Counted from the stretch's first letter, positions 3,159 to 21,148 are shown. The stretch: 64,000 bases of DNA from Gaiellaceae bacterium (GCA_035296905.1 DATHAA010000007.1:32415-96414); one strand, 5' to 3'. Notes: a model not told the origin generated them from the sequence alone. Made by a program: numbers and translations.

Positions 3159-3237
3159 GGCCACGCTCACAATACGGACGTAACGGGCGGTCGGCTTTTC
3201 ACCCAGGTCGCCCACCGCGGGCTCTAGAATCGAACCG

Positions 3238-4560: not shown

Positions 4561-5416
4561 GGCTGCCGTCCACGTCGCGAGCGGCAAGGTTCGCGAGATC
4601 TTCGAGCTCGACTCCGAGCGCCTGCTGCTCGTCGCCAGCGACCGCATCTCGACCTTCGACGTCGTGCTCCCGACCGAGATTCCGGACAAGGGCCGCGTGC
4701 TCACCGGACTCTCCGGCTTCTGGTTCGCGCGGACGCGTGCGATCGTCCCAAACCACCTGCTCGCGCTGCGGCCCGACGGCCGCTCGACCGAGGCGAAGCG
4801 CCTGCAGATGCTCCCGATCGAGTGCGTCGTCCGCGGGTACCTCGCCGGCTCGGGGTGGAAGGACTACTGCGCGACCGGCGCGACATCGGGCCACGAGCTT
4901 CCGGCCGGCCTGAGTGAGTCGGACCGGCTGCCCGCTCCGATCTTCACGCCCGCGACGAAGGCTCAGACCGGGCATGACGAGAACATCGACCACGCCCGCG
5001 CGGCCGAGCTCGTCGGCGAGGAGCGCCTGGCGCAGGTAGAGCGAATCGTTCTCGAGCTCTACCGGCACGCGTCCGAGTACGCCGGCGAGCGGGGCGTGAT
5101 CATCGCCGACACCAAGTTCGAGCTCGGTTTCGACGAGAACGGCGAGATCGTCCTCGGTGATGAGGCTCTGACGCCGGACTCCTCCCGCTTCTGGCCGGCG
5201 GACGTCTACACGCCCGGCGGGCCGCAGCCCTCATTCGACAAGCAGTACGTTCGCGACTACTGTGAGCGGCTCGGCTGGGACAAGACCGCTCCCGGCCCCG
5301 AGCTTCCCGAGGAGGTCGTCGCCGAGACGCGTGCCCGCTACGTCGAGGCTTTCGAGCGCCTCACCGGCCTCTCCTTCGAGGACTACCTCGCCGACCCGGA
5401 GATTGTCCTCCGATGA
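4553..5416 (+). CDS. purC: Phosphoribosylaminoimidazole-succinocarboxamide (SAICAR) synthase
   Basis: SGKVREIFE...LLLVASDRISTFDVVL, typical of long-form PurC. Overlaps the purB end. Confidence 0.92.
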   Translation: MPEAAVHVASGKVREIFELDSERLLLVASDRISTFDVVLPTEIPDKGRVLTGLSGFWFARTRAIVPNHLLALRPDGRSTEAKRLQMLPIECVVRGYLAGSGWKDYCATGATSGHELPAGLSESDRLPAPIFTPATKAQTGHDENIDHARAAELVGEERLAQVERIVLELYRHASEYAGERGVIIADTKFELGFDENGEIVLGDEALTPDSSRFWPADVYTPGGPQPSFDKQYVRDYCERLGWDKTAPGPELPEEVVAETRARYVEAFERLTGLSFEDYLADPEIVLR

Positions 5417-5652
5417 GGGCGACCGTCCTCGTTCGGCCGAAGGCAGGGATCCTCGACCCCCAGGGAGCGGCGGTGGAAAGCTCGCTGCGCCAGCTCGGGT
5501 TCCCGGTCGGCGAAGCGCGCGTCGGACGCGTGATTGACCTGGACGTCGACGCCGCCACCGCCGACGAGGCACGAGGCGAGATCGAACGCATGTGCGAGCG
5601 CTTGCTCGCGAACCCCTTGATCGAGAGCTACGAGATCGAGGTCGCCGGATGA
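5413..5652 (+). CDS. purS: FGAM synthase subunit PurS
   Basis: 79-aa protein. [24 protein letters not shown] is the typical PurS core. ATGA overlaps with both neighbours. Confidence 0.9.
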
Positions 5653-6335
5653 GCGAGGTCGTCCCGCGCATCGCAGTGCTCGTCTTCCCGGGGTCGAACG
5701 ACGACCGCGACGCGGCGTGGGCGCTCACTGCGCTCGGCGCCGACGCACGCCTCATCTGGCACGCCGAAGAAGCGCTGCCCGAGGTGGACGCCGTTGTCCT
5801 CCCCGGCGGGTTCTCGTACGGCGACTATCTGCGCTGCGGCGCGATCGCCCGCTTTTCGCCCGCGATGCAGGCGGTGACCGCGTTCGCGGCGGAGGGCGGT
5901 CTCGTCCTCGGGATCTGCAACGGCTTCCAGATCCTCTGCGAGGCCGGCCTCCTTCCGGGGGTCCTTCGCCCCAACGCGTCGCTCGAGTTCGTCTGCGCGG
6001 ACGTACCCCTGCGGGTCGAGCGCACTGACACGCCGTTTACCTCCAGGTGTGAGCCAGGACAGGAGCTGGTGATCCCCGTGAAGCACGGGGAGGGCTGCTA
6101 CCACGCACCGGCCGACCTGGACGACGAACAGATCATCCTCCGCTACACGCGGGGCGCGAACCCCAATGGCTCGGAACGCGATATCGCAGGCATCGTCAAC
6201 CCTGACGGGAACGTCCTCGGCCTGATGCCGCACCCCGAGCACGCGGTGGACCCCCTGCTCGGATCGGGGGACGGCGCGCTCGTGCTCGCGTCGCTGGTGG
6301 ATGCCGCTCGAGAGCGGCTCTATGCGAGGGCCTAG
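5649..6335 (+). CDS. purQ: FGAM synthase glutaminase subunit PurQ
   Basis: [15 protein letters not shown]..., nucleophile motif GICNGFQ and PHPEH near the C-terminus. Start at the ATG overlapping the purS stop (5649), not the ORF maximum at 5592. Confidence 0.92.
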
Positions 6336-6595
6336 GCAGCCATCCCGAGCGCTCCTTGGATCGTTGGATGTTCGGCAAGCGCTGCGCGGAAGCGCTCGAG
6401 GTCACGGCCGCGGAGGGTGACGGGTCCTCTCCGAGCTGTGCCGTCGGTCGAGTAGGCGAAGCGGACGAGCTCGTTCCCCTTCTCGTCCACCAGAAGCTGG
6501 ACGATCGTCGCGAAGCGGCGGTCGCCCGCGCGCTGCTGCACGGTGAACTCCTCCAGGACCTCTGCCTGCCCCCAGGGTGTCGTCGCTTTCGCCAT
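6332..6595 (-). CDS. Hypothetical protein (87 aa)
   Basis: Clean ORF with coding-like composition, convergent with purQ. No family recognised. Confidence 0.45.
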
Positions 6596-6684
6596 GACCC
6601 GAGGCTAGACGGAAAAAACGCACGGGAGACGCGCGAGGTGTGCCGGCTTTGCGAAGCCTCTGCGCCGAGAGGCCCTAACGAGGC

Positions 6685-7665
6685 TCAGGCTTCGCGCAAC
6701 CGCGGGTCGAGCATGTGGTGGGCGATGTCAACGAGCAGGTTCAGGCAGATGATCATCACGGCGAGGACGATCGTCACGCCCATGACCACCGTGTAGTCGC
6801 GAGCGATCACCGACGCGACGAAGTACTTCGAAATGCCGGGGATGGCGAAGATGTTCTCGACGATGAACGAGCCCGTGACCATCGCGCCGAACATCGGCCC
6901 GGCGACGATGATCAGGGGCAGCAACGAGTTCTTGAGCGCGTGGACGCCGACGATGCGCCTCCGCGACAGGCCCTTTGCCCGGGCCATCCGTACGTAGTCG
7001 CTCTCCAGGGTCTCGAGCAGAGTGCCGCGCAAGAGCCGTGCGAAGTAGGCCATCGGCACGAGGCTCAGGGTGAGGGTCGGCAGCACCTTATTCTGCCAGC
7101 TGTCGTCCCAGCCAGAGGTCGGGAGCAGGGCGAGCTTCACCGAAACGTAGTAGATGAGCAGCGTGGCGACGAGAAAGCTGGGCAGCGAGATGCCGAGCCC
7201 CGTGAGGACGCGGACGGCATAGTCGAAGACCGAGCCCGGTCGCAGCGCGGCCAGGATTCCCACCGGGATCCCGATGAGGATCGCCCACGCAAACGCCAGC
7301 AGCACGAGCTGGACCGAGCGCGGCGCCATCTCCTTGATGATGTCGGTCACGCGCATGTATCGAAACGACAGCGAGGGTCCGAAGTCGAGTGTCACGACGC
7401 CCTTCAGATAATTGCCGTACTGCTGGTACCAGGGCAGGTCGAGCCCGTACTTCTCGCGCTGGTTACGGCGGATCGCCGGAGGCTGCGGATCCCCGTACTT
7501 CACCCATCCCGCATTCGAGAGCCCGAGCAGCGGCCCGTGCCGGAACGGATCGCCGCCGATTGACCTCATCATGAAGAACACGATCGTGAGAACAACCCAG
7601 AGGATGGGGATCGTCCACAACAATCGGCGCAGGATGAAGCCAGCCACAGACTGAGCTTGCCCCAT
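6685..7665 (-). CDS. ABC transporter permease, oligopeptide/dipeptide (DppB/OppB) type; orphan
   Basis: N-terminus FILRRLLWTIPILWVVLTIVFFMM, 6-TM pattern and the EAA-like loop YVRMARAKGLSRRRIV. No partner DppC, ATPase or SBP gene is adjacent. Confidence 0.85.
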   Translation of the reverse strand: MGQAQSVAGFILRRLLWTIPILWVVLTIVFFMMRSIGGDPFRHGPLLGLSNAGWVKYGDPQPPAIRRNQREKYGLDLPWYQQYGNYLKGVVTLDFGPSLSFRYMRVTDIIKEMAPRSVQLVLLAFAWAILIGIPVGILAALRPGSVFDYAVRVLTGLGISLPSFLVATLLIYYVSVKLALLPTSGWDDSWQNKVLPTLTLSLVPMAYFARLLRGTLLETLESDYVRMARAKGLSRRRIVGVHALKNSLLPLIIVAGPMFGAMVTGSFIVENIFAIPGISKYFVASVIARDYTVVMGVTIVLAVMIICLNLLVDIAHHMLDPRLREA

Positions 7666-7995
7666 TCGTGAGCATCACCACCACTTTGATTTCTTGCCGC
7701 GAGCATAAGCGCTCCTTAGGCTCGTGGAGCGGACGCTGAGCCGCAGGCGAAAACCCTTTCGCTCCCGAGACGGGCACTCGTGCGCAGGGCGAAGACCGCG
7801 CTTCGCCACACATCTCGGGGGAGGCCCGTGCCGATCGGGACGCGCTCCGGATCCGGTGCTTCGGGGGTGGGACCAACATGCACACGTTCCGGGCAGCGCG
7901 TGTGGTCCGCCAGGGCACGGCGCTCGCCAACCCCTCCCTCTCCCGAGAGTCTCGCCGACCGCAGGTTCGGTGACTGGACGATTTCCACCCAGGCG

Positions 7996-8136
7996 ATGAA
8001 CCTGCTGGAGCAGGAGATCCGGGCAAGCGCGCCCCGCCGCGTGCGCGAGTTCGGAAGCGGGCTCAGCACCGCCTGCCTCGCGCGCTACATGGCGGAGAAC
8101 GCGCCCGGCTCGATCCTTTGCGCACGCAAACCGTGA
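7996..8136 (+). pseudogene. N-terminal remnant of a class I SAM-dependent methyltransferase
   Basis: MNLLEQEIRASAPRRVREFGSGLSTACLARYMAENAPGS contains a motif I-like E/DxGxGxS stretch. The reading frame ends after 46 codons, about 70 nt before repeat locus L1. Confidence 0.3.
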
Positions 8137-8208
8137 CGGGCTGGCCAAGGTCGACGTTCGCACCTGAGGAGCTTGCGCTCGAAGCGTTCCGCCTCGGAGC
8201 CAGCCATT

Positions 8209-8399
8209 TCAGCCGCGCTCGATCAGCTCGACCCGGTAGCGCATGTGCGTAAATTCATGCCCGCTCGATCAATTCGACTCGGTAGCCGTCGAGAAACAGT
8301 ACGTTTGTAAGTTGATCTGATTTGATCCTTCAGGCGCTGCTGTCCTCGATCAATTCGACCCGATAGTCGTCTGGAAGCGCGAACTTGTCGTGTGCAGCC
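8209..8399 (-). repeat. VOC-tail composite repeat, locus L1 (units a-b-c)
   Basis: Read on the minus strand there are three consecutive stop-terminated tails: ..THMRYRVELIERG*, ..NVLFLDGYRVELIERA*, ..DKFALPDDYRVELIEDSSA*. Same unit order as locus L3. Confidence 0.8.
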
Positions 8400-8423
8400 C
8401 GTTTTAGCAAGCCTCCCCAGCGA

Positions 8424-10004
8424 TCAAGCTCGCCAATAGCGGCGCGTGAAGAGCACGACGATCGGGATCAGCTCCAACCGGCCCAGCCACATCAGCACGA
8501 TCATGATCACTTTGGAAAGGTCGCTGAAAGGCTCGAACGAGCCCATCGGGCCCGCGAACCCGAATCCCGGTCCGACGTTCCCGATCGTCGTCGCGACGGC
8601 CGACATGGCCTCGAACGGGGTCACTTCTACCCCTGCTCGCGCGGATTCGATCGTGATGCCGATCGTTCCAAGGGCGAAGAGCCCGAGGTAGAGCAGCACG
8701 AAGAAGCTGAGCGCTCTCAGCGTCGGCTCGTCCACGACCCGCTGGTTGAAGCGGACCGGCCGAACGATCTCGGGATGAATGGTTTGATCGAGCTCGCGAC
8801 GCATTAACCTCGTGAGCATGAGGTGGCGGACGACCTTGATCGAGCCGGCCGTCGAGAGCGCCATCCCCCCGACGAACATGGCCACGACGAGGAGCACGGA
8901 CGTCAGCGCCGTCCAGCGTGTGAAGTCAGCGTTCGCGTAGCCCGTCGTAGTTGTCACCGAGACCGTCTGGAACACGGCCTTTCCAAAGGCTTCCCTGCCG
9001 TCGAACAGGTCGTTTGCCCACAGAGAGGCAAAGATGACAAGCGACGTGACGATGAGGACGGCGCCGTAGGTTCGAAACTCCTCGTCGCGCAAAAAATTCA
9101 TACGCCGGCGGGCAACCCCGTACAGGAGGACGAAGTTCGTTCCCGCCAGGAACATGAAGGCGACGATTGTCCATTGAGACGCCGAGCCGAACGCCTCGAT
9201 CGAGCGCGCCCGTGTCGAGAACCCACCGGTCGGCATCGTGGTGAAGGCGTGCCCGACGGCATCGAAGAGATTCATCTCGGGGTCGACCCCCGTCCAGCCG
9301 AGGAAGGCGAGAATGGAGGCCTCGAGTGCCGTGAGACCGATGTAGAGGACCCACATGAGGCGCGCGGTCTCCCGAATCGAGCTCGTCAACGTTTGGAACT
9401 CGTGCCCGGGCGCCTCCGAGGCGAAGAGCTGCCGCCCGCCGACGCGAAGGCGCGGGAGCACGGCGATGGCGAGCACGATGATTCCCATGCCGCCGATCCA
9501 CTGGGAGAACTGGCGCCACATCGCGAGCGAGTGGTTCAGCGCGCCGATGTCCGTGAGGGTGCTCGCCCCGGTCGTGGTCAATCCGCTCATCGCCTCGAAG
9601 AAAGCGTCGAGGGGGGCGTCGAGCTGCTGCTCGCTCGACAGGATGTACGGCAGCGCGACCAGGGCCGCTCCGAGAAACCAGGTGACGGCCACGACGAGGA
9701 AACCCTCTCGCGGTCCGACCCGCTCCTTGCCCCGCGTGAGGAACTCGAGACCCGCGCCTAGAGCGAACGAGACGGCACCACCGATCACGAACGGCCAGAC
9801 GGGTTCGCTGTAGCCGAGGGCGACAGCGGCCGGCAGGACGAACGCGAGGCTGAGGTACTTGACGAGCGCGCCGATTAGGTTCACGGACGCGCCGAGATCG
9901 ACCCCGATCGTTAAGCGTGCCTCGCCTGGCTCACGCGGTCTCCGATGCCATCGCTGTCGAACCACGAGCCTGACGTTAGAGACGCGCTCGGCGCTCGGGG
10001 TCAT
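8424..10004 (-). CDS. trkH: Trk-type potassium uptake protein TrkH
   Basis: Polytopic membrane protein with repeated pore-like segments (SGLTTTGAS, TTMPTGGFS, VTTTTGYAN, IGNVGPG). Start is uncertain: the ORF maximum is 10040, MTPSAERV is at 10004, and later alternative starts are possible. Confidence 0.85.
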   Translation of the reverse strand: MTPSAERVSNVRLVVRQRWHRRPREPGEARLTIGVDLGASVNLIGALVKYLSLAFVLPAAVALGYSEPVWPFVIGGAVSFALGAGLEFLTRGKERVGPREGFLVVAVTWFLGAALVALPYILSSEQQLDAPLDAFFEAMSGLTTTGASTLTDIGALNHSLAMWRQFSQWIGGMGIIVLAIAVLPRLRVGGRQLFASEAPGHEFQTLTSSIRETARLMWVLYIGLTALEASILAFLGWTGVDPEMNLFDAVGHAFTTMPTGGFSTRARSIEAFGSASQWTIVAFMFLAGTNFVLLYGVARRRMNFLRDEEFRTYGAVLIVTSLVIFASLWANDLFDGREAFGKAVFQTVSVTTTTGYANADFTRWTALTSVLLVVAMFVGGMALSTAGSIKVVRHLMLTRLMRRELDQTIHPEIVRPVRFNQRVVDEPTLRALSFFVLLYLGLFALGTIGITIESARAGVEVTPFEAMSAVATTIGNVGPGFGFAGPMGSFEPFSDLSKVIMIVLMWLGRLELIPIVVLFTRRYWRA

Positions 10005-10045
10005 GACCGCGAATCGAGGATCGCGTGGCGCTAGGCTCACACGGC

Positions 10046-11374
10046 ATGAAGGTCATAGTCGTCGGGGCGGGACAAGTTGGCTCAACGGTCATTGAGGCAC
10101 TCCACGGCGAGCACGAGCTGACGCTGATCGATGTCGACGCGACACGGCTGAACACGTTCGCGCACCGCTACGACATCGCCACGGTCGAGGGGAACAGCGC
10201 CAGCCGCCGCACGCTCCGCCAAGCGAACGTCGAGGAGACCGACCTGCTAATCGCCTGCACGTCCCGCGACGAGGTGAACATCGTCTCTTCGATGTTCGCG
10301 AAGAAGCTCTCGCCCTCGACCACGACGATCGTGCGGACGACGAACGTCGAGTACCTCGAGATCTGGCGCGAGCGAGAGCTCGAGATCGACTTCATGGTCT
10401 CCTCGGAGCAGGAGGTGGCCAACGCAGTCACACGAATCATCGGCATTCCAGCCGCGCGCCAGACCGACGTCTTCGCAGACGGGAAGGTGCAGGTCGTCGA
10501 GTTCGATGTGCCGGCGGACAGTTCCGACGGTCCAGTCATTGGGAAGGAGCTTCGGGAAGCCGAGATCCCGGCGGACTCGAAGGTGGCAGCCGTCATCCGC
10601 GGCAGTCGTGTCATCGTGCCGCGCGGAGACTCGTCCATCCTTCCAGGCGACCGGGTCGTGTTGATCGGCTCTCCCCGAGCAGCGCGCGAGTGGAGTCAGA
10701 TGCTGAGTGGCATCCGCCGCGGCGTCGAGAACGTCGTCATCTTCGGAGCCGGCCAAACGGGCTTCGCCGTCGCCGAGTCTCTCCTGGCCGAAGGAATCGA
10801 CGTGCGTCTGGTCGAGTGGAGGGCCGACCGCGCCCGCGAGGTGGCCGAGGCGCTTCCCAAGGCGCGCGTCTTCCATGCAACGGGCACGGATGCGGACTTT
10901 CTCGAGCGCGAACGGATCGGACGGGCCGCGGCTGGAATCTTCGCCATGCCCGACGACGCGAAGAATCTCTATGCGGCGACGCTCGCGCGGGTGCACGGAC
11001 TGAGGCTGACGATCGCGCTCGTCCACGAACCCGGCTCCGAGGAAGTCTTCGAGCGCACGGGAATCGACGTGACGATCAACCCGCGCACCGTGACCGCCGA
11101 GGAGATGGTCCGGTTCGCACACGACCCCCGTATCCGCCAGCTCGCGATGCTCGAGCGCGACCGTTTCGAAGTACTCGACATCACCGTCCGGGCGGAAAGC
11201 CGGCTCTGCGGGACGCCGTTTCGCGAACTCCCGATCACCGGCTCGCTCATCGGGGCCATCATCCGTGACGACACCGCGGTCTTTCCGCACGGCAATGACA
11301 TGCTCGAGCCCGGCGACCGTGCGATCATCTTCACCGAGTCGTCCCGGGTCCGCGAAGTTGAGGACGCCCTATAG
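10046..11374 (+). CDS. trkA: Trk system NAD-binding component TrkA (two RCK modules)
   Basis: MKVIVVGAGQVGS and a second VVIFGAGQTGF Rossmann motif, each followed by a TrkA_C-like segment. Divergent from trkH. Confidence 0.9.
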   Translation: MKVIVVGAGQVGSTVIEALHGEHELTLIDVDATRLNTFAHRYDIATVEGNSASRRTLRQANVEETDLLIACTSRDEVNIVSSMFAKKLSPSTTTIVRTTNVEYLEIWRERELEIDFMVSSEQEVANAVTRIIGIPAARQTDVFADGKVQVVEFDVPADSSDGPVIGKELREAEIPADSKVAAVIRGSRVIVPRGDSSILPGDRVVLIGSPRAAREWSQMLSGIRRGVENVVIFGAGQTGFAVAESLLAEGIDVRLVEWRADRAREVAEALPKARVFHATGTDADFLERERIGRAAAGIFAMPDDAKNLYAATLARVHGLRLTIALVHEPGSEEVFERTGIDVTINPRTVTAEEMVRFAHDPRIRQLAMLERDRFEVLDITVRAESRLCGTPFRELPITGSLIGAIIRDDTAVFPHGNDMLEPGDRAIIFTESSRVREVEDAL

Positions 11375-11480
11375 CGTTCGTGCAAGCGCGTGCTCAGCTC
11401 CGCTCGTCTCCATGTCGATCTGGGGGCGAAGCGGTCGAGAGGGGTCGAACGCTCATCCCCACCTCGCGAAGACGAGCGGG

Positions 11481-11549
11481 CGCCTCGTCGCCGTGCTCCT
11501 GCGTGTGACGGGTGTAGCCCCGGACATCGCGATCAGGAAGGTCCGGATC
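11481..11549 (-). pseudogene. Inverted partial copy of the 5' end of the cyclase gene at 12915
   Basis: The minus strand reads IRTFLIA-(1-nt deletion)-VRGYTRHTQEHGDEA. It aligns by eye at nucleotide level with 12972..13043 (IRTFLIADVRGYTRFTQERGDEA). Confidence 0.55.
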
Positions 11550-11777
11550 CCGGCTTCCGAGGTGGGTAGGAGAGGGTCTTCGAATCAAGGCCGCAAACGC
11601 CCGTTTCGACGAACCGGGCAGCACATGTGCTTGCCGTTCTCGCGGGTCAACCACACGAAGAGCCAAGGGCCCGGGCGCCGGGCATGACCCACGAATCGCC
11701 CCTCTGACGGTCGCTCGATCAGCCGCTGCATTCGATGAGCCCGACCCTGTAGGGATCGGGGGAAGCGCGTGGCCGCG

Positions 11778-11843
11778 AATTCATCCGCGCTCGATGAGCT
11801 CGACCCGGTAGCCGCCTGGAAACGCGAACTTGTCGAGTGCAGC
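11778..11843 (-). repeat. VOC-tail repeat, locus L2 (chimeric: c-type body with b-type tail)
   Basis: The minus strand reads ..AALDKFAFPGGYRVELIERG*, followed by the gaattca flank typical of b units. Confidence 0.75.
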
Positions 11844-11888
11844 ACGGTTAGCCGCTCCCCTGCGGTCACGCCTGCTCGCGGCCGCATC

Positions 11889-11993
11889 GACCTCCCAACG
11901 GGCTTGGCACCTCCGCAGGGCTACGTCTACCACTGCCACATCGTCGAGCACGAGGACGACGAGATGATGCGACCCTTCCGCGTCGTGAGCTGA
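11889..11993 (+). pseudogene. C-terminal remnant of a multicopper oxidase (CotA/bilirubin oxidase type)
   Basis: ..PPQGYVYHCHIVEHEDDEMMRPFRVVS* carries the C-terminal HCHxxxHxxxxM copper-binding motif. No upstream cupredoxin domains are present; the fragment abuts repeat L2. Confidence 0.6.
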
Positions 11994-12062
11994 GACGGCG
12001 GGTAAGGCGGCAGCGCGAAGAGCCGGGCGCCACACCGCCGAGCTCATCGAGCACCGAGGCGC

Positions 12063-12537
12063 TCAACCCGCTCTCGAGCGGCCTTCGGCTCCCACCGATT
12101 CGTGGTCGATTTGCTCGAGTCGGCTGAGCCGAGCGTCGACAGCCCCGAGCAGCGCGATGATCTCGTCCTCCTTCGACTCGAGCGCGTGCTCCTCCACTTC
12201 CACTTCCTGGAGGATCAGAATTGAGGCGACGACTGCGGTGACGACCGCGAAAAGGGCAGCACCCGAGAACATGAGTAGGAATCCGACTCCTCGGCCGGCA
12301 GCAGAATTGGGGGGCGAAATCCCCGTAGCCGATGGTCGTGACCGTCGCCCCCGCCCAGCAGATGCCGCTGAACGGCGAGTCGAATTCCTCTGGTTCCACG
12401 AGCCACACCGCAAGCCCTGCGCTCGAGACGAGGGCCGCCGTGACCGCGGCCGCACCCCACAGCGCCTTCTGCGCCATCAGCCGGGGAAAAAAAGAGAAAA
12501 TGAGTGCCATGCGTGTCGGACTCCACTTCGATTCCAT
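12063..12537 (-). pseudogene. Two-TM (KcsA-like) potassium channel, frameshifted in the pore-to-TM2 linker
   Basis: Frame A: TM1 plus pore helix plus selectivity filter ATVTTIGYGDFAP. Frame B continues NSAAGRGVGFLLMFSGAALFAVVTAVVASIL plus a C-terminal coiled segment. The frames join at a G6 run (12309..12314, C6 on the coding strand). Confidence 0.75.
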
Positions 12538-12658
12538 CGACTCACTCGCATCTTGGAATCCGAGAGCGCCCCGATTCCCTGTGCGGATTAGTACATCTCC
12601 GGAGGGCATGCGAGATCAGCTCACGTAACCGGCCCGAACATGCCGGCGGCGGGCCGAA

Positions 12659-12852
12659 TCAACCGGACTCGATCAGCTCGACCCTGTAGCCGTCCGGGAA
12701 GCGCGTGCGCGCAAATTCATCCGCGCTCAATGAGCTCGACCCTGTAGCTGTCTAGGAGGCGTACGTTTATAAGTTGATGTCTCAGGCGCCGGGCTCCTCG
12801 ATCAGTTCAACCCGATAGCCGTCTGGTAAGAAAAGGTTGTCGAGCCCACAAG
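12659..12852 (-). repeat. VOC-tail composite repeat, locus L3 (units a-b-c)
   Basis: Minus strand: ..ARTRFPDGYRVELIESG*, ..LINVRLLDSYRVELIERG*, ..GLDNLFLPDGYRVELIEEPGA*. Collinear with L1. Confidence 0.8.
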
Positions 12853-12914
12853 TGGCCCGGCGCGATCGCTGACAGCTCTGGAATCAGAGACTCCCGCGTC
12901 GTACGCTTGGCATC

Positions 12915-14357
12915 TTGCCTGGCGATGCGGCCCAGACCTCCGTCCATCGGACGGAACCACTGGACGACTCCGACATAAGGACGTTCCTGATCGCCGACGT
13001 CCGTGGGTACACGCGGTTCACCCAGGAACGAGGAGACGAGGCGGCGGGCGCCCTCGCCGGGCAGTTCGCCGACCTAGCGCGCGGCGTCGTCGCCGATCAC
13101 GACGGCCATGTGCTCGAGTTCCGGGGTGACGAAGCGCTTTGCGTCTTCCGCTCGGCCCGCCGGGCCCTGCGGGCCGCGGTCGGCCTCCAGGTGCGCTTCC
13201 GCGCTCCGGCGGGCGACGGGTCCACGTTTCCCCTCGGGATCGGCATCGGGCTCGCGGCGGGTGAGGCTGTGCCGATCGAAGGCGGATTCAGAGGGGCCTC
13301 TCTCAACCTGGCCGCACGACTCTGCGCGCTCGCGAAGCCAGGCGAGATCCTCGCGAGCGAGACGGTCGTCGGGCTTGCCGGCCAACTCGACGGCGTCCGC
13401 ATCGTGCCAAGGCGCTCTGTCCGCTTGAAGGGCATCGATCGTCCGGTCCGCTTGCTCGAGATCGCGTCAGAGACGCCGCTCCCCCCGCTTCCGGAACCGC
13501 ACGCGCGACGGCGGCGTATCGATCGACGATGGCTGGTCCTCGGAGCGATAGGTGCGTTCGCAGTTTTGGCCGGTCTTCTGACGCTTGGGCTTACTCGGGC
13601 GACCGCGGACCGCGGGCTCTCGGCGCTCACGCCGAATTCGCTTGGCGTCGTCGACCCGTCCGACGGGCGCATCACCAGCGAGATTGCACTCGAGGCTCGC
13701 CCGAGCGCGGTTGCCGAAGGCGACGGCTCGCTCTGGGTCGCGAACGCCGCTGACAGCACCGTCACGCGCATCGACCCTAGTACGCGCGCCAGCACAACCA
13801 TTCCCGTGGGCCCGGGACCGACCGCGCTGACCTTCTACGAAGGGGCAGTCTGGGTCGCCAACAACCAGGGAAGAACGGTTTCGCGCGTCGATGCAGCGAC
13901 GAACAAGGTCGTCCAGGAGATCACCGTCGGGAACGGGCCACGAGCGATCGCCGGCGGCGCAGGTCGCGTCTGGGTTGCGAACGGAGTCGACGGCACGGTT
14001 TCGAGCATCGACCCCCAGAGCGGCAACACGACGAAGCCGATCACGGTCGGGGCGGATCCGAGCGGTCTCGCCGTGCTCGGTGGCAGCCTCTGGGTGGCGA
14101 GCGAGGCGACCGGGACGGTTGTTCGGCTGAACCCTTCGGGGGACATCGTCGAACCAGTCGCAGTCGGAAATGCGCCGAGCGCAATCGCGACCGACGGAGA
14201 GGGTCTTTGGGTCGCGAACGCTCAGGACGCGACCGTGTCCAGAATCAATCCGAGTCGCGGCAGTGTCACCGACGTCGTGCGGGAGGAAAGAATCCCCGGG
14301 CACTTGCCTTCGGGGAAGGCGCGCTGTGGGTGGCGAACGTCGACGACGGCACTCTGA
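12915..14357 (+). CDS. Class III adenylate/guanylate cyclase domain - TM helix - YVTN/NHL-like beta-propeller repeats (upstream part of a frameshifted fusion gene)
   Basis: Cyclase motifs FLIADVRGYT, EFRGDEALCVF and GASLNLAARL, then the TM helix WLVLGAIGAFAVLAGLLTLGL. About six repeats of the pattern G.GP.A.a...g.lWVAN..d.TVSRIdp follow. The last 25 codons look out of frame. TTG start is uncertain. Confidence 0.75.
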   Translation: MPGDAAQTSVHRTEPLDDSDIRTFLIADVRGYTRFTQERGDEAAGALAGQFADLARGVVADHDGHVLEFRGDEALCVFRSARRALRAAVGLQVRFRAPAGDGSTFPLGIGIGLAAGEAVPIEGGFRGASLNLAARLCALAKPGEILASETVVGLAGQLDGVRIVPRRSVRLKGIDRPVRLLEIASETPLPPLPEPHARRRRIDRRWLVLGAIGAFAVLAGLLTLGLTRATADRGLSALTPNSLGVVDPSDGRITSEIALEARPSAVAEGDGSLWVANAADSTVTRIDPSTRASTTIPVGPGPTALTFYEGAVWVANNQGRTVSRVDAATNKVVQEITVGNGPRAIAGGAGRVWVANGVDGTVSSIDPQSGNTTKPITVGADPSGLAVLGGSLWVASEATGTVVRLNPSGDIVEPVAVGNAPSAIATDGEGLWVANAQDATVSRINPSRGSVTDVVREERIPGHLPSGKARCGWRTSTTAL

Positions 14358-16030
14358 CCAAGGTCGACGTACAGAGCCGAAGAGCGGTGCAAACGATCGA
14401 GCTGACGAGCAGCCCGATCGGCATCGCCTTTGCGGACGGGTCCGTCTGGCCGACTGCCGTGGCGACGCCGGTAAGCCATCGGGGCGGAGTCCTTCGTGTC
14501 GCGTTGAGCGGCCTTTCGGACTGCGAGTGTCTCGACCCCAAGGTCTCCTGGGACAATGGCGCTTGGCAGCTGATGGCGAACGTCTACGACGGGCTCGTCG
14601 GCTACAAACGCGTTGCTGGCGCGCTGGGCCGGTCTCTCGTGCCGGACCTCGCGCGGACCGTCCCGACCCCCACCGACGGGGGAAAGACGTACTCGTTCCA
14701 GCTGCGGCCAGGGGTTCGCTTCTCGAACGGCCGGGTCGTCCGGGCGAGCGACGTCCTGTACTCCTTCGAACGCCTCTACACGGCTGGATACCGCTACAAC
14801 CAGATCCCCTACTACGGGGGGATCGTCGGCGCGGAAGCGTGTGCGGGGGATCCGAGCTCGTGCGATCTCTCGGGCGGAATCGAGGCGGACGACACGACGG
14901 GCACCGTGACCATCCACCTGACCCAGCCGGATGGTGATTTCCTCTACAAGTTGGCCCTGCCGTTTGCCGCAATCGTTTCGGCGGAGAGCCCGCCTGCGAA
15001 GGACTCCGGACTCAACGTCGCCGGCACCGGACCGTACAAGCTGGCCCAGTACGACGGGAACGGCGTTCGGCTCGTCCGCAACCCCCACTTCCAGCCGTGG
15101 TCGCTCCAAGCTCAGCCGGCCGGTTATCCGGACGAGATCACGGCGATCCTTGGTCTATCCCCCGACGAGCAGCTCTCGGCCGTCATGAACGGCAAGGCCG
15201 ATTACACGAGCGAGCTTCCACCCGAACGGATCGCCGATCTTTCGACCCGCTATCCCGGGCAATTCCACAGCGATTCGATGACCGGCGTCTATTTCGTCTC
15301 ACTGAACTCGGCCGAGGCGCCCTTCGACGACGTTCGCGCTCGTCAGGCACTGAACTATGCGGTCGATCGGCGCCGCGTCGTGGAGCTCATGGGCGGCCCT
15401 GCGATGTCCCAGATCACCTGTCAGTTCCTGCCGCCGAACTTCCCGGGCTACGAGCCGCATTGCCCCTACACGTTCGATCCAAATCCGGCCGGAACGTGGA
15501 CGGCGCCCGACATCGCCCGGGCACGCCGACTCGTCTCCGCGTCCGGCACGAAGGGGATGCGAGTGGAGATGTTCGTGAAGCAGGACTGGGCAAAGGTCGG
15601 TCGGTACCTTGCGAGCGTGCTCGACGAAATCGGCTACGACGGCTCGTTGACGGTTTTCACGGACGACGAGAGGTACTTCGACGCCATCTACGCGAAGCAT
15701 CGCTATCAGGCGGCGATGAGCGGCTGGGTCGGGGACACGGGTCCGGCCAACTTCCTGCAGGTGAACTTCGGCTGCCCCGCCGCGGAGAACACCTCCAAAT
15801 TCTGCGATCCGAGGATCAGCGCTCTGATAGACCGGGCGGTGGACGCGCAGAGCGCGGAGAACGCCGTCAGTCTCGCCCCCTGGGCCGAGGCGGATCGTGC
15901 GCTCACCACCGTGGCGCCCGTCGTCCCGCTCTTCAACCCGCGCCGGACGGTTCTCCTCTCGACGCGAACCGGTAATTTCCAGTCACACCCCGAGTACGGA
16001 GCGCTCCTGGATCAGTTGTGGGTCCGCTGA
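14207..16030 (+). CDS. Final beta-propeller blade plus family-5 solute-binding protein domain (peptide/nickel SBP type); downstream part of the frameshifted fusion
   Basis: From about 14282 the frame reads GKNPRALAFGEGALWVANVDDGTLTKVDV (a continuing blade), then an SBP_bac_5-like body (LDP...WDNGAWQLMANVYDGLVGY, TYSFQLRPGVRFSNG, NPHFQPW). The first 25 codons of the listed ORF are probably not coding. Confidence 0.75.
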   Translation: MGRERSGRDRVQNQSESRQCHRRRAGGKNPRALAFGEGALWVANVDDGTLTKVDVQSRRAVQTIELTSSPIGIAFADGSVWPTAVATPVSHRGGVLRVALSGLSDCECLDPKVSWDNGAWQLMANVYDGLVGYKRVAGALGRSLVPDLARTVPTPTDGGKTYSFQLRPGVRFSNGRVVRASDVLYSFERLYTAGYRYNQIPYYGGIVGAEACAGDPSSCDLSGGIEADDTTGTVTIHLTQPDGDFLYKLALPFAAIVSAESPPAKDSGLNVAGTGPYKLAQYDGNGVRLVRNPHFQPWSLQAQPAGYPDEITAILGLSPDEQLSAVMNGKADYTSELPPERIADLSTRYPGQFHSDSMTGVYFVSLNSAEAPFDDVRARQALNYAVDRRRVVELMGGPAMSQITCQFLPPNFPGYEPHCPYTFDPNPAGTWTAPDIARARRLVSASGTKGMRVEMFVKQDWAKVGRYLASVLDEIGYDGSLTVFTDDERYFDAIYAKHRYQAAMSGWVGDTGPANFLQVNFGCPAAENTSKFCDPRISALIDRAVDAQSAENAVSLAPWAEADRALTTVAPVVPLFNPRRTVLLSTRTGNFQSHPEYGALLDQLWVR

Positions 16031-16087
16031 GCCGGCAGCCCGCCGCGAAGACGACTCGGGGCGGCGCGGCTCGGCTGGCGCCTTCGA

Positions 16088-16150
16088 TCAGCCGCGCTCG
16101 ATTAATTCAATCCTGTAGCGGTCTAGGAAGCGTACGGTGGTAAGTTGATG
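16088..16150 (-). repeat. VOC-tail repeat, locus L4 (chimeric a/b unit)
   Basis: The minus strand reads HQLTTVRFLDRYRIELIERG*. It is followed directly by tcaggcgcc, the stop region of the next gene. Confidence 0.7.
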
Positions 16151-16152
16151 AT

Positions 16153-16809
16153 TCAGGCGCCCTCGCCCTCGGCGGCCCCGTCGACCACCTCGGACTGTAG
16201 GTTCGCGTCCGTGGCCTGCTCAGGGGCCACGGCGGACGGGAACCGCACATCCGCCGCGCTCGCGACTTCCTCGACCCGCGTCGTGATTTCACGGATGTCG
16301 GCGAGGAGGCGACCGCGCTCTTCCTGAATCATGTCTGCATCGGCGCGAAGCTCATGCACCCGTGCCTCAGCCTCTGCACGCGACGCGGTGACCTCCGCCT
16401 GGCAGCGCTCGCGCTCTTTCGCAGCTTCCGCCCGCGCCTGCGCCACGGTGGCCTCCGCCTCCCCCTGTGAGCGGGCGAGGATGTCTTCCGCCGCGGTCTT
16501 CGCTTTGGCGACGATCTCCTCTGCCTCCTCGTTCGCGCGGGCGATTGTTCCTTCTGCGTCATGGCGCGCCGCGGTCGTGATCTCTTCGGCCGTCAACCCC
16601 GCCTGTTCGAGGAGGGCTCTTGTCTGCTCGCCCACCTGTTCAAGCGCGCGCTTCACCGCTGCCTCTGGTGAGCGCCTCAGCTCGAGCTCAGCGACGACCT
16701 GCTCGACGCGGTTCGCGTAGGCATCGACGGCGGCGCGGTCGTAGCCGCGAACCGACACGGGGAAGGTGGCCTTTCCGATTTCCTCGGCCGGGTCTCGCCA
16801 CTCCGTCAT
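16153..16809 (-). CDS. DivIVA-domain protein with long Ala/Glu-rich coiled coil (paralog 1)
   Basis: FPVSVRGYDRAAVDAYANRV (DivIVA N-terminal motif), then EAEEIVAKAKTAAEDIL.. repeats. ATG at 16809 is preceded by GAGGAG. The ORF maximum (17016) would overlap the upstream paralog. Confidence 0.75.
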   Translation of the reverse strand: MTEWRDPAEEIGKATFPVSVRGYDRAAVDAYANRVEQVVAELELRRSPEAAVKRALEQVGEQTRALLEQAGLTAEEITTAARHDAEGTIARANEEAEEIVAKAKTAAEDILARSQGEAEATVAQARAEAAKERERCQAEVTASRAEAEARVHELRADADMIQEERGRLLADIREITTRVEEVASAADVRFPSAVAPEQATDANLQSEVVDGAAEGEGA

Positions 16810-16894
16810 CTTCTCCTCTGGAATGGAGGACGCAGTCGGCTCGCTCGCGGGCTCAGAGGGCTGGTCGCTCGGCACTGCTCGAGTATGCCTCGCA

Positions 16895-17533
16895 CTAATG
16901 AAATTTGTCGCTGCGTGTTGTGTTCGCATCACGCTCCTCGCCATCTTCGTCGACGAAGTGCGCAACGGTTTCGTCCAGTCGCGTGGCGATGGCGCGAATG
17001 CCCGCGAGTACGTCACGGCGCTGGCCCCAGATCACATTCGTATCGATGCGAAGTGCCCGCAGCCGTGCCTCTGCTTCTTTGCGCATGACCTCGATCTCGT
17101 GCTCGGCGTGCGCGAGTCGGCGTGCTGCCTCCGTCACTGCGTCTGCCAGGATCCGCTCGGCCTCAGCTCCTGCCCTTGCGCAATGTTCGTCGGCCTCGAC
17201 CTTTGCCCGCTCCGCTTCATCGCCGGCAGTGACGACGAGATCGACCGCTTTCGCCCCGGCCGCCGAGGTGATCTGCTTCGCCTCTCGCCCGGCCGCAGCA
17301 ACGAGCTCGGCCGCCGCCTCCCGGGCGTCTCGCAAGATGTCGCTTCGCTGTTCCTCCGCCCGCTCGAAGGCGCGCTCGAGCACAGTCTCTGGCGAACGCG
17401 TCGCCTCGAGCTCGGCGATGAGGCGGTTCACGCGGGTGACGTAGACATCGACCGCCCGGCGCTCGTAGCCGCGACCGACAGTCGGGAAGGCGACCGTCCG
17501 GAGGTCTTGGGGGACGCGCGGCGGTTCCCTCAC
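16895..17533 (-). CDS. DivIVA-domain coiled-coil protein (paralog 2)
   Basis: FPTVGRGYERRAVDVYVTRVNRLIAELE, followed by an A/E/R-rich coiled coil. GTG start. Confidence 0.75.
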   Translation of the reverse strand: MREPPRVPQDLRTVAFPTVGRGYERRAVDVYVTRVNRLIAELEATRSPETVLERAFERAEEQRSDILRDAREAAAELVAAAGREAKQITSAAGAKAVDLVVTAGDEAERAKVEADEHCARAGAEAERILADAVTEAARRLAHAEHEIEVMRKEAEARLRALRIDTNVIWGQRRDVLAGIRAIATRLDETVAHFVDEDGEERDANTTRSDKFH

Positions 17534-17846
17534 GCTTGCCCCCTATTCTCGCGCGGGCAGGTCTGGGGCCTCCGAGTCGCGACCATCAGCCGCACGCGGG
17601 AACCCTACCCGCCGACTGGCCGGCACGTGGGAAGCCTAATCCCAGCGGCTCGAGCAGGCGGGAAACACGCTTTGGTGGCCCAGGCGCATCCTCAGACGAG
17701 CGGCCGTTCGTAGCCGCCTGCGACCTCCGCGACGAGTAGCCAAACGACGCTCTTCCTCACCCCGAAAAGGGAAATCCTCGTCTCACCCTTTCGCTGCAAT
17801 CAAGCCCTCTCGGCCCTGAGGAGCGGTCGCAAGGATCGCCTCAATT

Positions 17847-17908
17847 TCACGCGTCGCGCTGGTCAATCAGTTCAACCCGATAAGCCGTCCGGGAAGTCGC
17901 GTGCACGC
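17847..17908 (-). repeat. VOC-tail repeat, locus L5 (a-type unit with 1-nt insertion) abutting the gloA stop
   Basis: The minus strand reads ..FPDG(+1 nt)YRVELIDQRDA*. The junction gcgtgcacgcaaaattcatcc reproduces the a-b junctions of L1 and L3. Confidence 0.7.
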
Positions 17909-17913
17909 AAAAT

Positions 17914-18294
17914 TCATCCCCGCTCAACAAGTTCAACACGGTAGCCGTCCGGGTCGCGGACAAAACAGATGCGCGAGCCGCCCTCACGAACTGTGTACGG
18001 AGGCCGCTCCGGCGCGATGCCCTTCTTTTCCAACTGGCCGAGTGCTTCGTCGAGGTCGTCGACCGTCACGGCTATGTGTCCGTAGCCGGTGCCAATTTCG
18101 TATCCGGCCTCGGGTGTCTCAAAGTTGTACGTAAGCTCGAGCTCTGGGCCGTCCCGGCCCGGGACGCCGAGAAAATAGTTGACGGCTTCGTCGCGGATCG
18201 GGAGCTCGCGCCGTTTCTGGAAGCCGAGTGCCTCGTAAAAGGCGATCGACGCGTCCGGGTCAGTGACGCGGTAGCAGGTGTGGATCAGCTCCAC
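17914..18294 (-). CDS. gloA: Lactoylglutathione lyase (glyoxalase I), VOC superfamily
   Basis: MELIHTCYRVTDPDASIAFYEALGF...LELTYN...GYGHIAV...FVRDPDGYRVELVERG; 126 aa, typical small GloA. Confidence 0.85.
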   Translation of the reverse strand: MELIHTCYRVTDPDASIAFYEALGFQKRRELPIRDEAVNYFLGVPGRDGPELELTYNFETPEAGYEIGTGYGHIAVTVDDLDEALGQLEKKGIAPERPPYTVREGGSRICFVRDPDGYRVELVERG

Positions 18295-18802
18295 GTGCCG
18301 AGCGTACTACGAACGACTCCTGACGCGAGAAGAATTGGCGGCTCCCAACGTAGCGTCACCGGCTCTCGCCCTCTTCGCAAGAACAGCGAGCGCCTACACG
18401 GTAAGGAAGGGCTCGACGGTGCGAGTCCGTCAGAGGGCTTGCCGAACCCGCCGCAGATGGCGGGTGCGGGCGCTCCTCCTCAGCGGTGCTCAGCCAACCT
18501 TCCTACGTGTCGAGCTCGGTGGCGGGCACGGTGAGACGTCGACCGTATCCGAGGAGGCGCTCTGGTGGCCGCCAGGCAAGATCGTTGGCCACTACCTGAG
18601 CCCCTTCCTCGCCAGCCTCGGCATCGCCGAGGTTCATGATGAGGACGAGGACGTCCTCCGCGTCGAGATCGATGCGGCCACTGCGCATGAGCGCCGACTC
18701 GTAGGCGCAATCCGTACTAGCCCGAGGAGCAAGACGGCGTTTTCCCCGACGACGCCCGTACGCGCTGGCGCCACCCTATAGACGAAGCGAAAGGAGCACA
18801 CT

Positions 18803-19210
18803 GTGAAGACGGAATTCGCAGCGGAAACGCCCGTCAGCCTCGTCATGACGAGAGATTTCCTCACCGCCGAGCCGTGGGACACGCTCGGCGAAACGGCTGA
18901 AAGAATGACCCAGTCGGCCTACGGCTCGGCGCTCGTGATCGACGCAGGGCAACTCGTTGGCATCCTTACCTCACGCGACCTCGTGCGTGCAATGGCGGGT
19001 CGGACACACTCGAGCGAGGCGCGCGTGCGCGAGTGGATGACGTCGAACCCGCGCGTTGCTCGTCCCGAGACAGCCGCCGAGGAGGCCGGACTAATCATGG
19101 TCGAACAGGGCTGCCATCACCTGCCGGTCGTGGACGAGAACGGCCGGCCACTCGGCCTCGTGGGAATGCGGGCCGTCGTCTCCGAGACATTCGAGCCGGT
19201 CCTCGATTAG
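18803..19210 (+). CDS. CBS-pair domain protein
   Basis: Two CBS motifs (VMTRDFLTAEP...GSALVIDAGQLVGILTSRDL, and MTSNPRVARPET...HHLPVVDENGRPLGLVGMRAV). GTG start preceded by AAAGGAG. Confidence 0.85.
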   Translation: MKTEFAAETPVSLVMTRDFLTAEPWDTLGETAERMTQSAYGSALVIDAGQLVGILTSRDLVRAMAGRTHSSEARVREWMTSNPRVARPETAAEEAGLIMVEQGCHHLPVVDENGRPLGLVGMRAVVSETFEPVLD

Positions 19211-19213
19211 ACC

Positions 19214-19558
19214 TCAGAGGCCACTGGCTTCGTCACCGGAGTCGGCGAAAGCAGTACGGCTCGCGACGAGCGTCAGAGCCCTATCCGGCACACGCCCGGG
19301 GTCGCCTACCGCGGCCAGAGCTGATTCATGCTGTCGAGCGGGCCTATCGGAAACCTGTAGCTGCTCGAGCTCGTAGGAGTCGACGCCGAAGCTGTACGTG
19401 AGCTGCAGGCGGTCGCCGTCCGCGGGCAGGCCCATGAAGATGTTGATCGCCTCGTCGCGAATCGGAAGCTCGCGGCGCTTCTCGAACCCGAGCGCCTCTT
19501 AGAACGTGACCGAGCGGCCGGGGTCGGTGATTCGGTAGCAGGTGTGGATCAATTCCAT
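19214..19558 (-). pseudogene. Glyoxalase I paralog inactivated by an in-frame TAA and loss of C-terminal similarity
   Basis: The minus strand reads MELIHTCYRITDPGRSVTF*EALGFEKRRELPIRDEAINIFMGLPADGDRLQLTYSFGVDSYE, with the stop at 19499..19501. Beyond about codon 70 the sequence no longer resembles GloA. Confidence 0.8.
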
Positions 19559-20162: not shown

Positions 20163-21080
20163 CTATGCGCGTGGGGTCGCCGGGGCGGGCTCGTCCCGGC
20201 GACCCCGCACGACCTTGAAGACGCCGGAGCCGAGCGCCACCCCGGCGAGGATGAGCACGAGGCCGAGCGCCGCGTTCAGGTGGACCTGCTCGTCGAGGAG
20301 CGTGACGCCGTAAAAGAGCGCCATCGGCGGCAGGAGATAGGTAACGAGCGACGTGCGCGACGAGCCGTACGTGTTCAGCATCCGATAGAGGACGAGCGTG
20401 GCGAACGCGGTGCCGATGAGGCCGAGAGCCGCGACGGACGCGAGTGCCTTCCAGCCTGGCATCTGGTCGGGAAGCTGGAACAGCGAGACCGGGATCAGCA
20501 GGATCATTCCCCAGAAGGTGGTCGTGGCGGCCACGACGAGCGGCTCGGTGCTCCCGAACCGCGCCGGCGCGTAGAGGTTTGCGCACGCATAGGAGAACGA
20601 GGCGATGACCACGGCGAGCGTGCCGGCGATGGCCCACCAACCGCCGTCGGGATTGAGCCCGGTGAGGACGCCGACGCCGACGAGCCCGAGGATGACCCCG
20701 AAGAGACGCATGCCGGTCACGCGCTCGCTCGGGCGGAAGCGAATGGCGAGGAGCGCGACGAAGATCGGCACCGTCGAGTTCGCGATCGCGGCCACGCCTG
20801 AGTCCACGTGCTTCTCGCCCCAGGCGATGAGCGTGAACGGGATGGCCATGTTGATGAGGCCGAGCAGCAGGCCCCCGCCCCCGGTGCCACGGATCGCCGA
20901 GACCGCGCCGCGAAAGCCAGAGGCGTAGGCGAGCACGGGAAAGAGCGCGGCGAAGGCGAGGATCAGCCGCAGGCACATCATCGGAGCGGGCTCGAGGTCC
21001 TCGACGGCGACCTTGATGAAGAGGTAGGACGCGCCCCAGGAGGCGGCCAGGATCCCGAGCATGAGGACATAGCCGCGCAT
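20163..21080 (-). CDS. EamA/DMT-family transporter
   Basis: 10-TM pattern in two duplicated halves. The N-terminus LGILAASWGASYLFIKV is typical of EamA. Confidence 0.85.
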   Translation of the reverse strand: MRGYVLMLGILAASWGASYLFIKVAVEDLEPAPMMCLRLILAFAALFPVLAYASGFRGAVSAIRGTGGGGLLLGLINMAIPFTLIAWGEKHVDSGVAAIANSTVPIFVALLAIRFRPSERVTGMRLFGVILGLVGVGVLTGLNPDGGWWAIAGTLAVVIASFSYACANLYAPARFGSTEPLVVAATTTFWGMILLIPVSLFQLPDQMPGWKALASVAALGLIGTAFATLVLYRMLNTYGSSRTSLVTYLLPPMALFYGVTLLDEQVHLNAALGLVLILAGVALGSGVFKVVRGRRDEPAPATPRA

Positions 21081-21148
21081 GCTTAGAACCTAAACGACGA
21101 AGATCCCTCCTCGCCTTCCGCTCGACTCGATATGGTTGGCGAGGCCTC

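Follow-up and report, generated by a model that had tools for sequence, protein, structure and literature searches.

Introduction

The minisatellites of the MIRU-VNTR type (mycobacterial interspersed repetitive units, variable number tandem repeats) were described in Mycobacterium (Supply et al. 1997) and are summarized in PMC3184786 and PMC3635867, while ICESt1 (an integrative and conjugative element, ICE) and the integrase-less CIMEs (cis-mobilizable elements) at fda of Streptococcus thermophilus exemplify tandem accretion at the 3' end of a protein-coding gene (PMC5704250). Here, we compare these and other systems with a 64,000-nt stretch of a Gaiellaceae bacterium (GCA_035296905.1, DATHAA010000007.1:32415-96414), hereafter the window, in which short copies of the 3' end of gloA recur on one strand downstream of the intact gene. 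This gene encodes a lactoylglutathione lyase of the vicinal oxygen chelate (VOC) superfamily, which is of the glyoxalase type. Integrons, which also invite comparison, comprise an IntI integrase with attI and attC sites, the latter being imperfectly palindromic, folding in single-stranded form, and having conserved RYYYAAC/GTTRRRY ends. The best reading of the window locus is that it contains a gloA-tail minisatellite whose units are the recombination joints in a variable array that is cassette-like and one-directional.

Compared by description, the gloA-tail repeats and MIRUs are both actinobacterial, and both form 40-100-nt direct tandem units that are intergenic, overlap the ends of neighboring reading frames, and vary in copy number between strains. 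In contrast to MIRUs, the unit here can be recognized as the stop and the preceding C-terminal codons of a single identified gene, a change in copy number swaps the GloA C-terminus, and the orphans (tail copies without a gene body) show signs of protein-level constraint; furthermore, MIRUs occupy ~40 loci around the genome, whereas copies here were seen only downstream of gloA. With the ICE/CIME arrangement, the locus shares co-oriented direct repeats that include the target-gene 3' end and bound successive downstream gene blocks, some of which are without recombination genes. It differs in that no integrase was seen in related loci, pure tandem amplification of the repeats also occurs, the repeats diverge as coding sequence does, and the genes of the segments are of a housekeeping type and lie in both orientations. 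The likeness to integrons lies in an anchored one-directional array with short repeated sites between variable cassettes of one to a few genes, whose content differs between close relatives. However, no IntI-type tyrosine recombinase gene was found beside the array in the scanned open reading frames (ORFs) and Pfam lists, most units have GTCGAGC at the position of GTTRRRY and none forms an attC-type imperfect palindrome, and here the genes are of mixed orientation with their own upstream regions while the site is a translated gene tail. At tRNA/tmRNA island hotspots, co-oriented partial 3' ends of the target similarly pile up downstream of the intact gene, but the tail here is protein-coding and varies at synonymous sites, no integrase was found, and the window contains no tRNA or tmRNA gene. 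The units also differ from REP sequences (repetitive extragenic palindromes) and MITEs (miniature inverted-repeat transposable elements) in being without palindromic stem-loops, terminal inverted repeats or target-site duplications. A literature search found no earlier description of gloA-tail repeats. Two of their features are unusual, namely that the repeat, a translated gene tail, retains its coding signature even in orphan copies and that it punctuates a variable gene array without a visible recombinase.

Five loci built from gloA 3' ends

The window contains five same-strand loci with 11 units in all (8209-8398, 11719-11843, 12659-12847, 16088-16170, and 17847-17955; coordinates are positions in the window and all units are read on the minus strand). 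Each unit is a gloA 3' end consisting of the last 10-25 codons plus the stop, and the joints between units are two conserved linkers, linker2 of 16 nt and linker1 of ~23-38 nt.

8209-8398, minus: locus A composite, beginning 25 nt past the trkH stop
8330-8398, minus: locus A c unit, ending ..LPDDYRVELIEDSSA and stop
8297-8329, minus: locus A linker1
8255-8296, minus: locus A b unit, FLDGYRVELIERA and stop
8239-8254, minus: locus A linker2
8209-8238, minus: locus A a unit, 5'-truncated
11781-11843, minus: locus B c/b fusion unit, ending ..LDKFAFPGGYRVELIERG and stop
11765-11780, minus: locus B linker2
11719-11764, minus: locus B a unit, PDPYRVGLIECSG and stop
12659-12847, minus: locus C composite, order c-linker1-b-linker2-a
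12782-12847, minus: locus C c unit, ending ..LPDGYRVELIEEPGA and stop
12759-12781, minus: locus C linker1
12717-12758, minus: locus C b unit, LLDSYRVELIERG and stop
12701-12716, minus: locus C linker2
12659-12700, minus: locus C a unit, FPDGYRVELIESG and stop
16153-16170, minus: locus D c remnant, the final 18 nt of a c unit
16130-16152, minus: locus D linker1
16088-16129, minus: locus D b unit, FLDRYRIELIERG and stop
17914-17955, minus: locus E gloA-attached tail unit (last 14 codons), DPDGYRVELVERG and stop
17897-17913, minus: locus E linker2, ATTTTGCGTGCACGCGA
17847-17896, minus: locus E decayed orphan, ..LIDQRDA and stop, with a 1-nt insertion

A first-pass annotation of this DNA had reported five VOC 3'-tail loci in the same orientation within less than 10 kb, which both nhmmer and the minus-strand reading of the units confirmed. 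When locus C (12655-12860) was used as the nhmmer query, only the other four loci matched strongly within the 64 kb (E = 2e-24, 3e-13, 9e-12, and 7e-10), followed by a second alignment within locus E (E = 0.0013) and a plus-strand match at 12032-12123 (E = 0.84), the latter of which was treated as chance. The a-b-c composites A and C are indeed collinear and about three quarters identical, as previously judged by eye, with 136 of 181 aligned positions matching (75%). Locus E required a correction: its orphan does adjoin the gloA stop, lying 17 nt past it in the 'a' position, yet it is nearest to type c (83%, 36 nt) and not a type a unit as had been stated. The period is 58 nt from b to a and ~65-80 nt from c to b; since these are not multiples of three, neighboring units are in different frames and each has its own stop. 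Tandem Repeats Finder did not call the window arrays, whose units are too few and too diverged. We also agree that this is not a CRISPR array, as conservation extends over the 'repeat' and 'spacer' parts of the units alike and the loci are 0.8-3.4 kb apart. Separately, translation of units from trkH by read-through or frameshift was ruled out, since the frames do not fit.

All sequences used for comparison are metagenome contigs, identified here by L numbers. The region was 99.8-100% identical, with no indel within units, in six further independent assemblies from ENA and Logan (L001-L006), and two JGI metagenome contigs, L013 and L016, matched loci A and B with 99.9% and 99.8% identity. Because independent assemblies reproduce the loci, an assembly artefact is very unlikely. 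Two population variants were noted along the way. At position 11781, L001 has T instead of A, so that the c/b unit of locus B loses its stop (TGA to TGT), and at position 18691 all other assemblies covering the site have two extra bases (AG).

All unit types resemble GloA C-termini

The intact gene, and the remains of a second resident copy that the first-pass annotation had missed, are located as follows.

17914-18294, minus: intact gloA (lactoylglutathione lyase, VOC superfamily, 126 aa), Pfam Glyoxalase E = 1e-19
19366-19558, minus: gloA-1 5' pseudogene fragment (193 nt, second resident gloA), codon 19 TAA versus TAC in homologues

The GloA of the window is 70-97% identical to its 120 best homologues, many of which are named lactoylglutathione lyase in their source; one of these, 81% identical, belongs to a Gaiellaceae metagenome-assembled genome (MAG). 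The native C-terminus, FVRDPDGYRVELIERG and stop, is found exactly in 26 of the 120, while some homologues end in variants similar to the c-type ending (..ELIEQRSA, ..ELVEQPSA, and ..ELIEDRGA, for example). These comparisons indicate that types a, b, and c are C-terminus variants of a single gloA family rather than assorted VOC paralogs. As all unit types match gloA-family C-termini, recombination among the many VOC paralogs of the genome, which had been offered as a source, does not account for them. The earlier view of a copied block likewise stands for the gloA 3' end and its flank, but the supposed third VOC tail is not a separate paralog. In L027, a linker1-like spacer and then a b-like unit come after an intact gloA; accordingly, the window order c-linker1-b-linker2-a resembles a gloA 3' end that carries two orphan tails but has no gene body.

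The fragment at 19366-19558 is the ortholog of a full-length gloA-1 in L038 (2607-2969), and the window and L038 are alike in having a resident gloA-1 beside EamA and a gloA-2 further on. The L038 gloA-1 ends in another tail type, ..DPDGNRLVAN and stop, and in L017 an orphan of this same type, FPDGKRLVAS and stop, follows linker2.

Copy number, tail swapping, and coding constraint

The number of units behind gloA varies within one lineage of constant gene order (purF-purL-EamA-acetyltransferase-gloA-cyclase-DapB...purQ-purS-purC-purB). There is one tail unit in L034, L035, and L036, in which gloA is fused in frame to a b-like unit (131 aa, ..EIIERRAHFPA and stop), whereas L027 and L032 have two and L033 has three, with a period of 77 nt and the first unit of the array being the gene's own end. 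Contraction of the array therefore fuses a different unit in frame to gloA. This variable unit number is minisatellite behavior, and it alters the C-terminus of the protein. Periods recur elsewhere as well, with 58 nt also in the L007 and L009 arrays and 77-80 nt in L027, L033, and the c-b pairs of the window.

The tails and bodies of gloA were then compared, the tail being taken with its 16-nt flank. L014 and L017 are 76.8% identical in the body and 98.2% in the tail, and for L025 and L014 the values are 72.6% and 91.2%. The window and L025 exhibit the reverse, with 89.8% identity in the body and 73.7% in the tail. These values indicate that gloA tails and bodies differ in history.

For the orphans, we examined 33 cores (27 distinct). 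The count, which scores site states relative to the consensus rather than events on a tree, gave 12 synonymous single-site changes out of 17 possible versus 14 of the 64 non-synonymous ones (Fisher p = 3e-4). The amino acid was kept in 53 of 75 variant codons, and leucine is encoded among the orphans by CTC, CTG, CTA, TTG, and TTA, with the sixth codon, CTT, occurring in the gene-attached gloA tail. The pattern points to protein-level constraint on the orphans, with mostly synonymous variation. Copy-number change could explain both this constraint and the separate histories of tails and bodies, because contraction can return any orphan to the gene and thereby expose it to selection.

Units bound segments that turn over between relatives

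Besides pure arrays, the units enclose genes. The five unit blocks of the window delimit four segments, which are listed below from gloA onward.

16171-17846, minus: segment 1, loci E-D, two DivIVA-like genes (16895-17533 and 16153-16809)
12848-16087, plus: segment 2, loci D-C, an NHL-propeller/SBP_bac_5 gene split into two ORFs
11844-12658, minus: segment 3, loci C-B, a frameshifted K+ channel gene (12063-12609)
8399-11718, mixed: segment 4, loci B-A, a truncated N-terminus of a cyclase-NHL-SBP (solute-binding protein) gene (11469-11718, minus), trkA (10025-11374, plus), and trkH (8424-10004, minus)

Unit-bounded segments were also seen in L014, L025, L027, L028, and L038, and in each lineage a different segment of 1-3 genes follows gloA and is closed by another orphan block.

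L014, gloA strand: cyclase-AAA-TPR gene after gloA
L027, opposite strand: cyclase-AAA-TPR gene after gloA
L025: protein kinase-NHL-SBP gene after gloA, then a cyclase-NHL-SBP gene
L028: PQQ-repeat protein gene after gloA, plus one more gene
L038: four segments after gloA
Window: four segments after gloA

Synteny comparison thus bears out the idea that units mark boundaries of segments differing among relatives. The NHL-SBP segment is common to the window and L038 (93% identity), and the homology extends from the first base of a unit up to the border of the next unit block. L038 lacks the DivIVA segment found in the window and has a single hybrid unit in its place; the 5' part of the hybrid is like the E orphan, while its 3' part and flank are like the b unit of locus D, which is itself the ortholog of the unit directly behind gloA-2 in L038. 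In the same contig, two-unit blocks at 15127-15236 and 16793-16885 flank one aminotransferase gene and differ by one mismatch over ~110 shared nt, with the same lost stop (TGG), which looks like a recent duplication or insertion. The a unit of locus B and the next 250 nt, including the truncated cyclase-NHL-SBP N-terminus, match L025 8623-8915 at 83%. Between L014 and L027, identity is ~90% up to the 5' flank of gloA, ~73% within gloA, and not detectable past the tail until the distal units, which implies that gloA itself travels with the exchanged stretch. Downstream of trkH, there is one degenerate unit in L019 and none in L023, and the trkAH flanks differ in all three genomes. The DivIVA-like gene at 16153-16809 receives its last six codons and stop from the c-type remnant of locus D (16153-16170).

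The units are narrowly distributed. Among 185,579 species-representative genomes, a strict pattern scan gave one stretch, in L007, an uncultured Actinomycetes MAG, and a metagenome pattern scan gave 10 contigs; thus, the unit family appears to be confined to a narrow group of uncultured actinobacteria. Across 10 gloA loci (~8 lineages), all 41 of 41 unit matches were on the gloA strand, 0 to +9.7 kb from the stop, and none was upstream of gloA in ~120 kb. All copies in the window lie in a single 10-kb stretch, with none in the remaining 54 kb.

Homology-driven exchange as a proposed mechanism, and its alternatives

Unequal recombination within arrays, tail swapping, presence/absence polymorphism of a segment whose joint is a hybrid unit, and a one-directional same-strand layout are all observed in these loci. 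The only process directly seen is unequal recombination between units, both as one, two, or three copies behind gloA and as a hybrid unit where one genome lacks a segment that another has. If the units are the joints of a cassette-like array, exchange would act on 40-110-nt repeats, both unequally within a genome and with DNA of relatives bearing the repeats, and segments would be lost, gained, or swapped with relatives through them. Any unit may in this way become the working C-terminus of GloA, so that selection on the enzyme would keep orphans translatable. Over time, recombination between units has produced a one-directional mosaic behind gloA, between purL (with EamA) and purQ, in which segments of 1-3 genes are bounded by orphan blocks. 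Whether ordinary homology-driven recombination suffices, with no dedicated recombinase needed, is in our estimate an evenly balanced question. We favor it because no recombinase is seen in ~200 kb of related loci, tandem arrays are a signature of unequal exchange, and an apparent cleavage core dissolved on inspection. Regarding the latter, many junctions fall at CCGGACGG / GACGGCTAC, which is also the conserved DPDG motif, and a fixed core GACGG was withdrawn since two of the 'junctions' (L038 gloA-1 and L017) are a switch to the homologous tail PDG(N/K)RLVA(N/S) and stop. Several points weigh against homology-driven exchange at gloA-derived joints. For RecA-type recombination, 40-110 nt at 75-98% identity is a short substrate, and homologous exchange alone leaves the first orphan blocks beside non-gloA genes such as trkH unexplained. 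Synteny also breaks away from units on the trkA side (~11381) and at the end of the cyclase fragment (11469). Nor is the family strictly tied to gloA, as L007 has four unit matches in 4 kb with no gloA within 8 kb, and the units of L009 follow another VOC paralog, which shares 46% identity with GloA. Lastly, a recombinase could be encoded elsewhere in the genome, the searches having covered related loci, and some metagenome contigs could contain mis-joins at the repeats.

Site-specific accretion, which comes nearest to the first-pass idea, is a real possibility that we hold to be a good deal less probable. In such a scheme, the gloA 3' end would be an attachment site at which each integration adds a tail and pushes the old one downstream, and the segments would be decayed integrase-less elements (CIMEs) mobilized by an integrase encoded elsewhere. 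Co-oriented direct repeats carrying the target-gene 3' end do flank each segment, all downstream of gloA and on its strand, so this part of the original proposal stands; segment content varies among relatives, tails are replaced independently of gene bodies, the reduced third-codon-position GC at 11.4-20 kb suggests foreign origin, and PMC5704250 describes both accretion at gene 3' ends and integrase-less elements. The recombinase is what fails to appear. Pfam analysis of window ORFs (not every small ORF) and of gene lists around gloA in L001 and L019-L038 revealed no integrase, excisionase, or transposase in the tested window ORFs or ~20 related loci, and among window ORFs and the small ORFs upstream of gloA in L025 and L038 only DUF6946 exceeded the cutoff set by Pfam itself, with sub-threshold matches to SlpA_N, End_tail_spike, and BNR_2. 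Phage and plasmid collections searched by BLASTN with the composite yielded no match, and three viral-contig pattern scans gave nothing relevant, their lone match being an 18-nt linker pattern in L008. Moreover, the segment genes are ordinary chromosomal ones (trkAH, K+ channel, DivIVA-like, solute-binding protein), tandem arrays with periods of 58 and 77 nt and no intervening DNA are not what integration or excision leaves behind, and the apparent GACGG breakpoint is in part a switch of tail type. Still less probable, in our judgment, is an integron-like actinobacterial gene-capture platform behind gloA, whose site doubles as a translated enzyme C-terminus and which, through an unrecognized recombinase elsewhere or dedicated homologous recombination, would trade cassettes (trkAH, ion channels, cyclases, solute-binding proteins) among related soil bacteria. 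A small non-autonomous mobile unit of the MIRU or MITE kind, 58 nt long, derived from a gloA tail and copying itself into new sites, preferably gloA-like tails, is improbable, although a near-identical 57-70-nt consensus (tail, linker2, and TTCCCGGACGG) does occur in different genomes and behind different genes, including the clusters of L007 and L009 described above, and its size, tandem layout, intergenic site, and actinobacterial host resemble those of MIRUs (PMC3184786). The first-pass annotation had raised a free-moving element of this type, and the one-directional distribution, restricted to the locus downstream of gloA, makes one unlikely; in addition, flanks had neither terminal inverted repeats nor a consistent target-site duplication, with none shared by the flanks of terminal units, there is no conserved hairpin (z -0.2 to -1.0), the other 54 kb of the window are free of copies, and exact-pattern scans recovered so few sequences. 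We consider it highly improbable that the units are conserved for a function of their own, as a structured RNA, a terminator, or mini-peptides. Mostly synonymous variation, ATGA start/stop overlaps at unit ends, and an 8-7-8 inverted repeat (CTCATC..GATGAG) spanning the stop codon in some copies would fit a functional unit. However, Rfam 15 covariance models gave 0 matches at E <= 1 over 7000-19500, folding of units was not significant (z-scores -0.47, -0.24, and -0.95), the alignment fold of -3 kcal/mol included no compensatory pair, and no terminator- or promoter-like site was found on the units, on which grounds a structured RNA or terminator was rejected. An in-frame start codon is also missing from most units, and several copies are frameshifted, truncated, or stop-less.

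Implications of a gene-derived minisatellite

A gloA-tail minisatellite would be a bacterial minisatellite of clearly traceable origin, namely the 3' coding end of a named gene, and it may bear on how MIRU-like repeats arise, a question that to our knowledge has not been settled. It also suggests that non-genic copies can bear a signature of protein selection when contraction returns them to the gene, which calls for caution in inferring from synonymous patterns that a sequence is translated. At the level of the chromosome, the locus is a hypervariable, one-directional, cassette-like region of uncultured soil actinobacteria with no visible recombinase, and should the exchange prove to be directed, it would constitute a new route of gene-content turnover. 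On the practical side, gloA-tail repeats are possible markers for strain typing and likely break points for metagenome assembly and binning.

Neighboring genes and additional observations

The array is flanked by purB/purC/purQ (3184-6335) on one side and by an EamA permease gene with purL/purF (20163-24699) on the other. Within segment 2, the NHL/SBP gene (12915-16030, plus) is represented by overlapping ORFs at 12915-14357 and 14330-16030, as opposed to a single 1061-aa ORF in L038; the split is probably a frameshift, and it is also present in the gene calls of L001 and L002. The fragment at 11469-11718 (minus) includes 49 nt that recur in inverted orientation at the start of the gene at 12915 (12995-13043, plus). 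The K+ channel gene (12063-12609, minus) of segment 3 has a frameshift near 12270-12330, where L001 is the same as the window, and its selectivity filter TTIGYGD is read in a different frame from the second transmembrane helix and the C-terminus.

Adenylate/guanylate cyclase genes, often of the cyclase-AAA/NB-ARC-TPR type, adjoin tail units in almost every relative and in either orientation (window 12915-14357; L014 6844-10365; L015 1186-2100; L019 3209-5680; L027 13136-13684; L028 1290-4325; L038 16945-19431). It should be noted that the cyclase-like N-terminus of the window gene at 12915-14357 was read from the sequence, as Pfam did not report it. L019 (3053-3089) and L021 (2171-2233) have identical TrkH and differ by small indels in one orphan unit, with CTACAGG missing in L019, and the cyclase gene beside that orphan forms a single ORF in L019 but two ORFs in L021. 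At 6332-7674 of the window, the order of an OppB-type permease gene and a 90-aa gene is swapped relative to L025 (12121-13438) and L010 (1166-2492).

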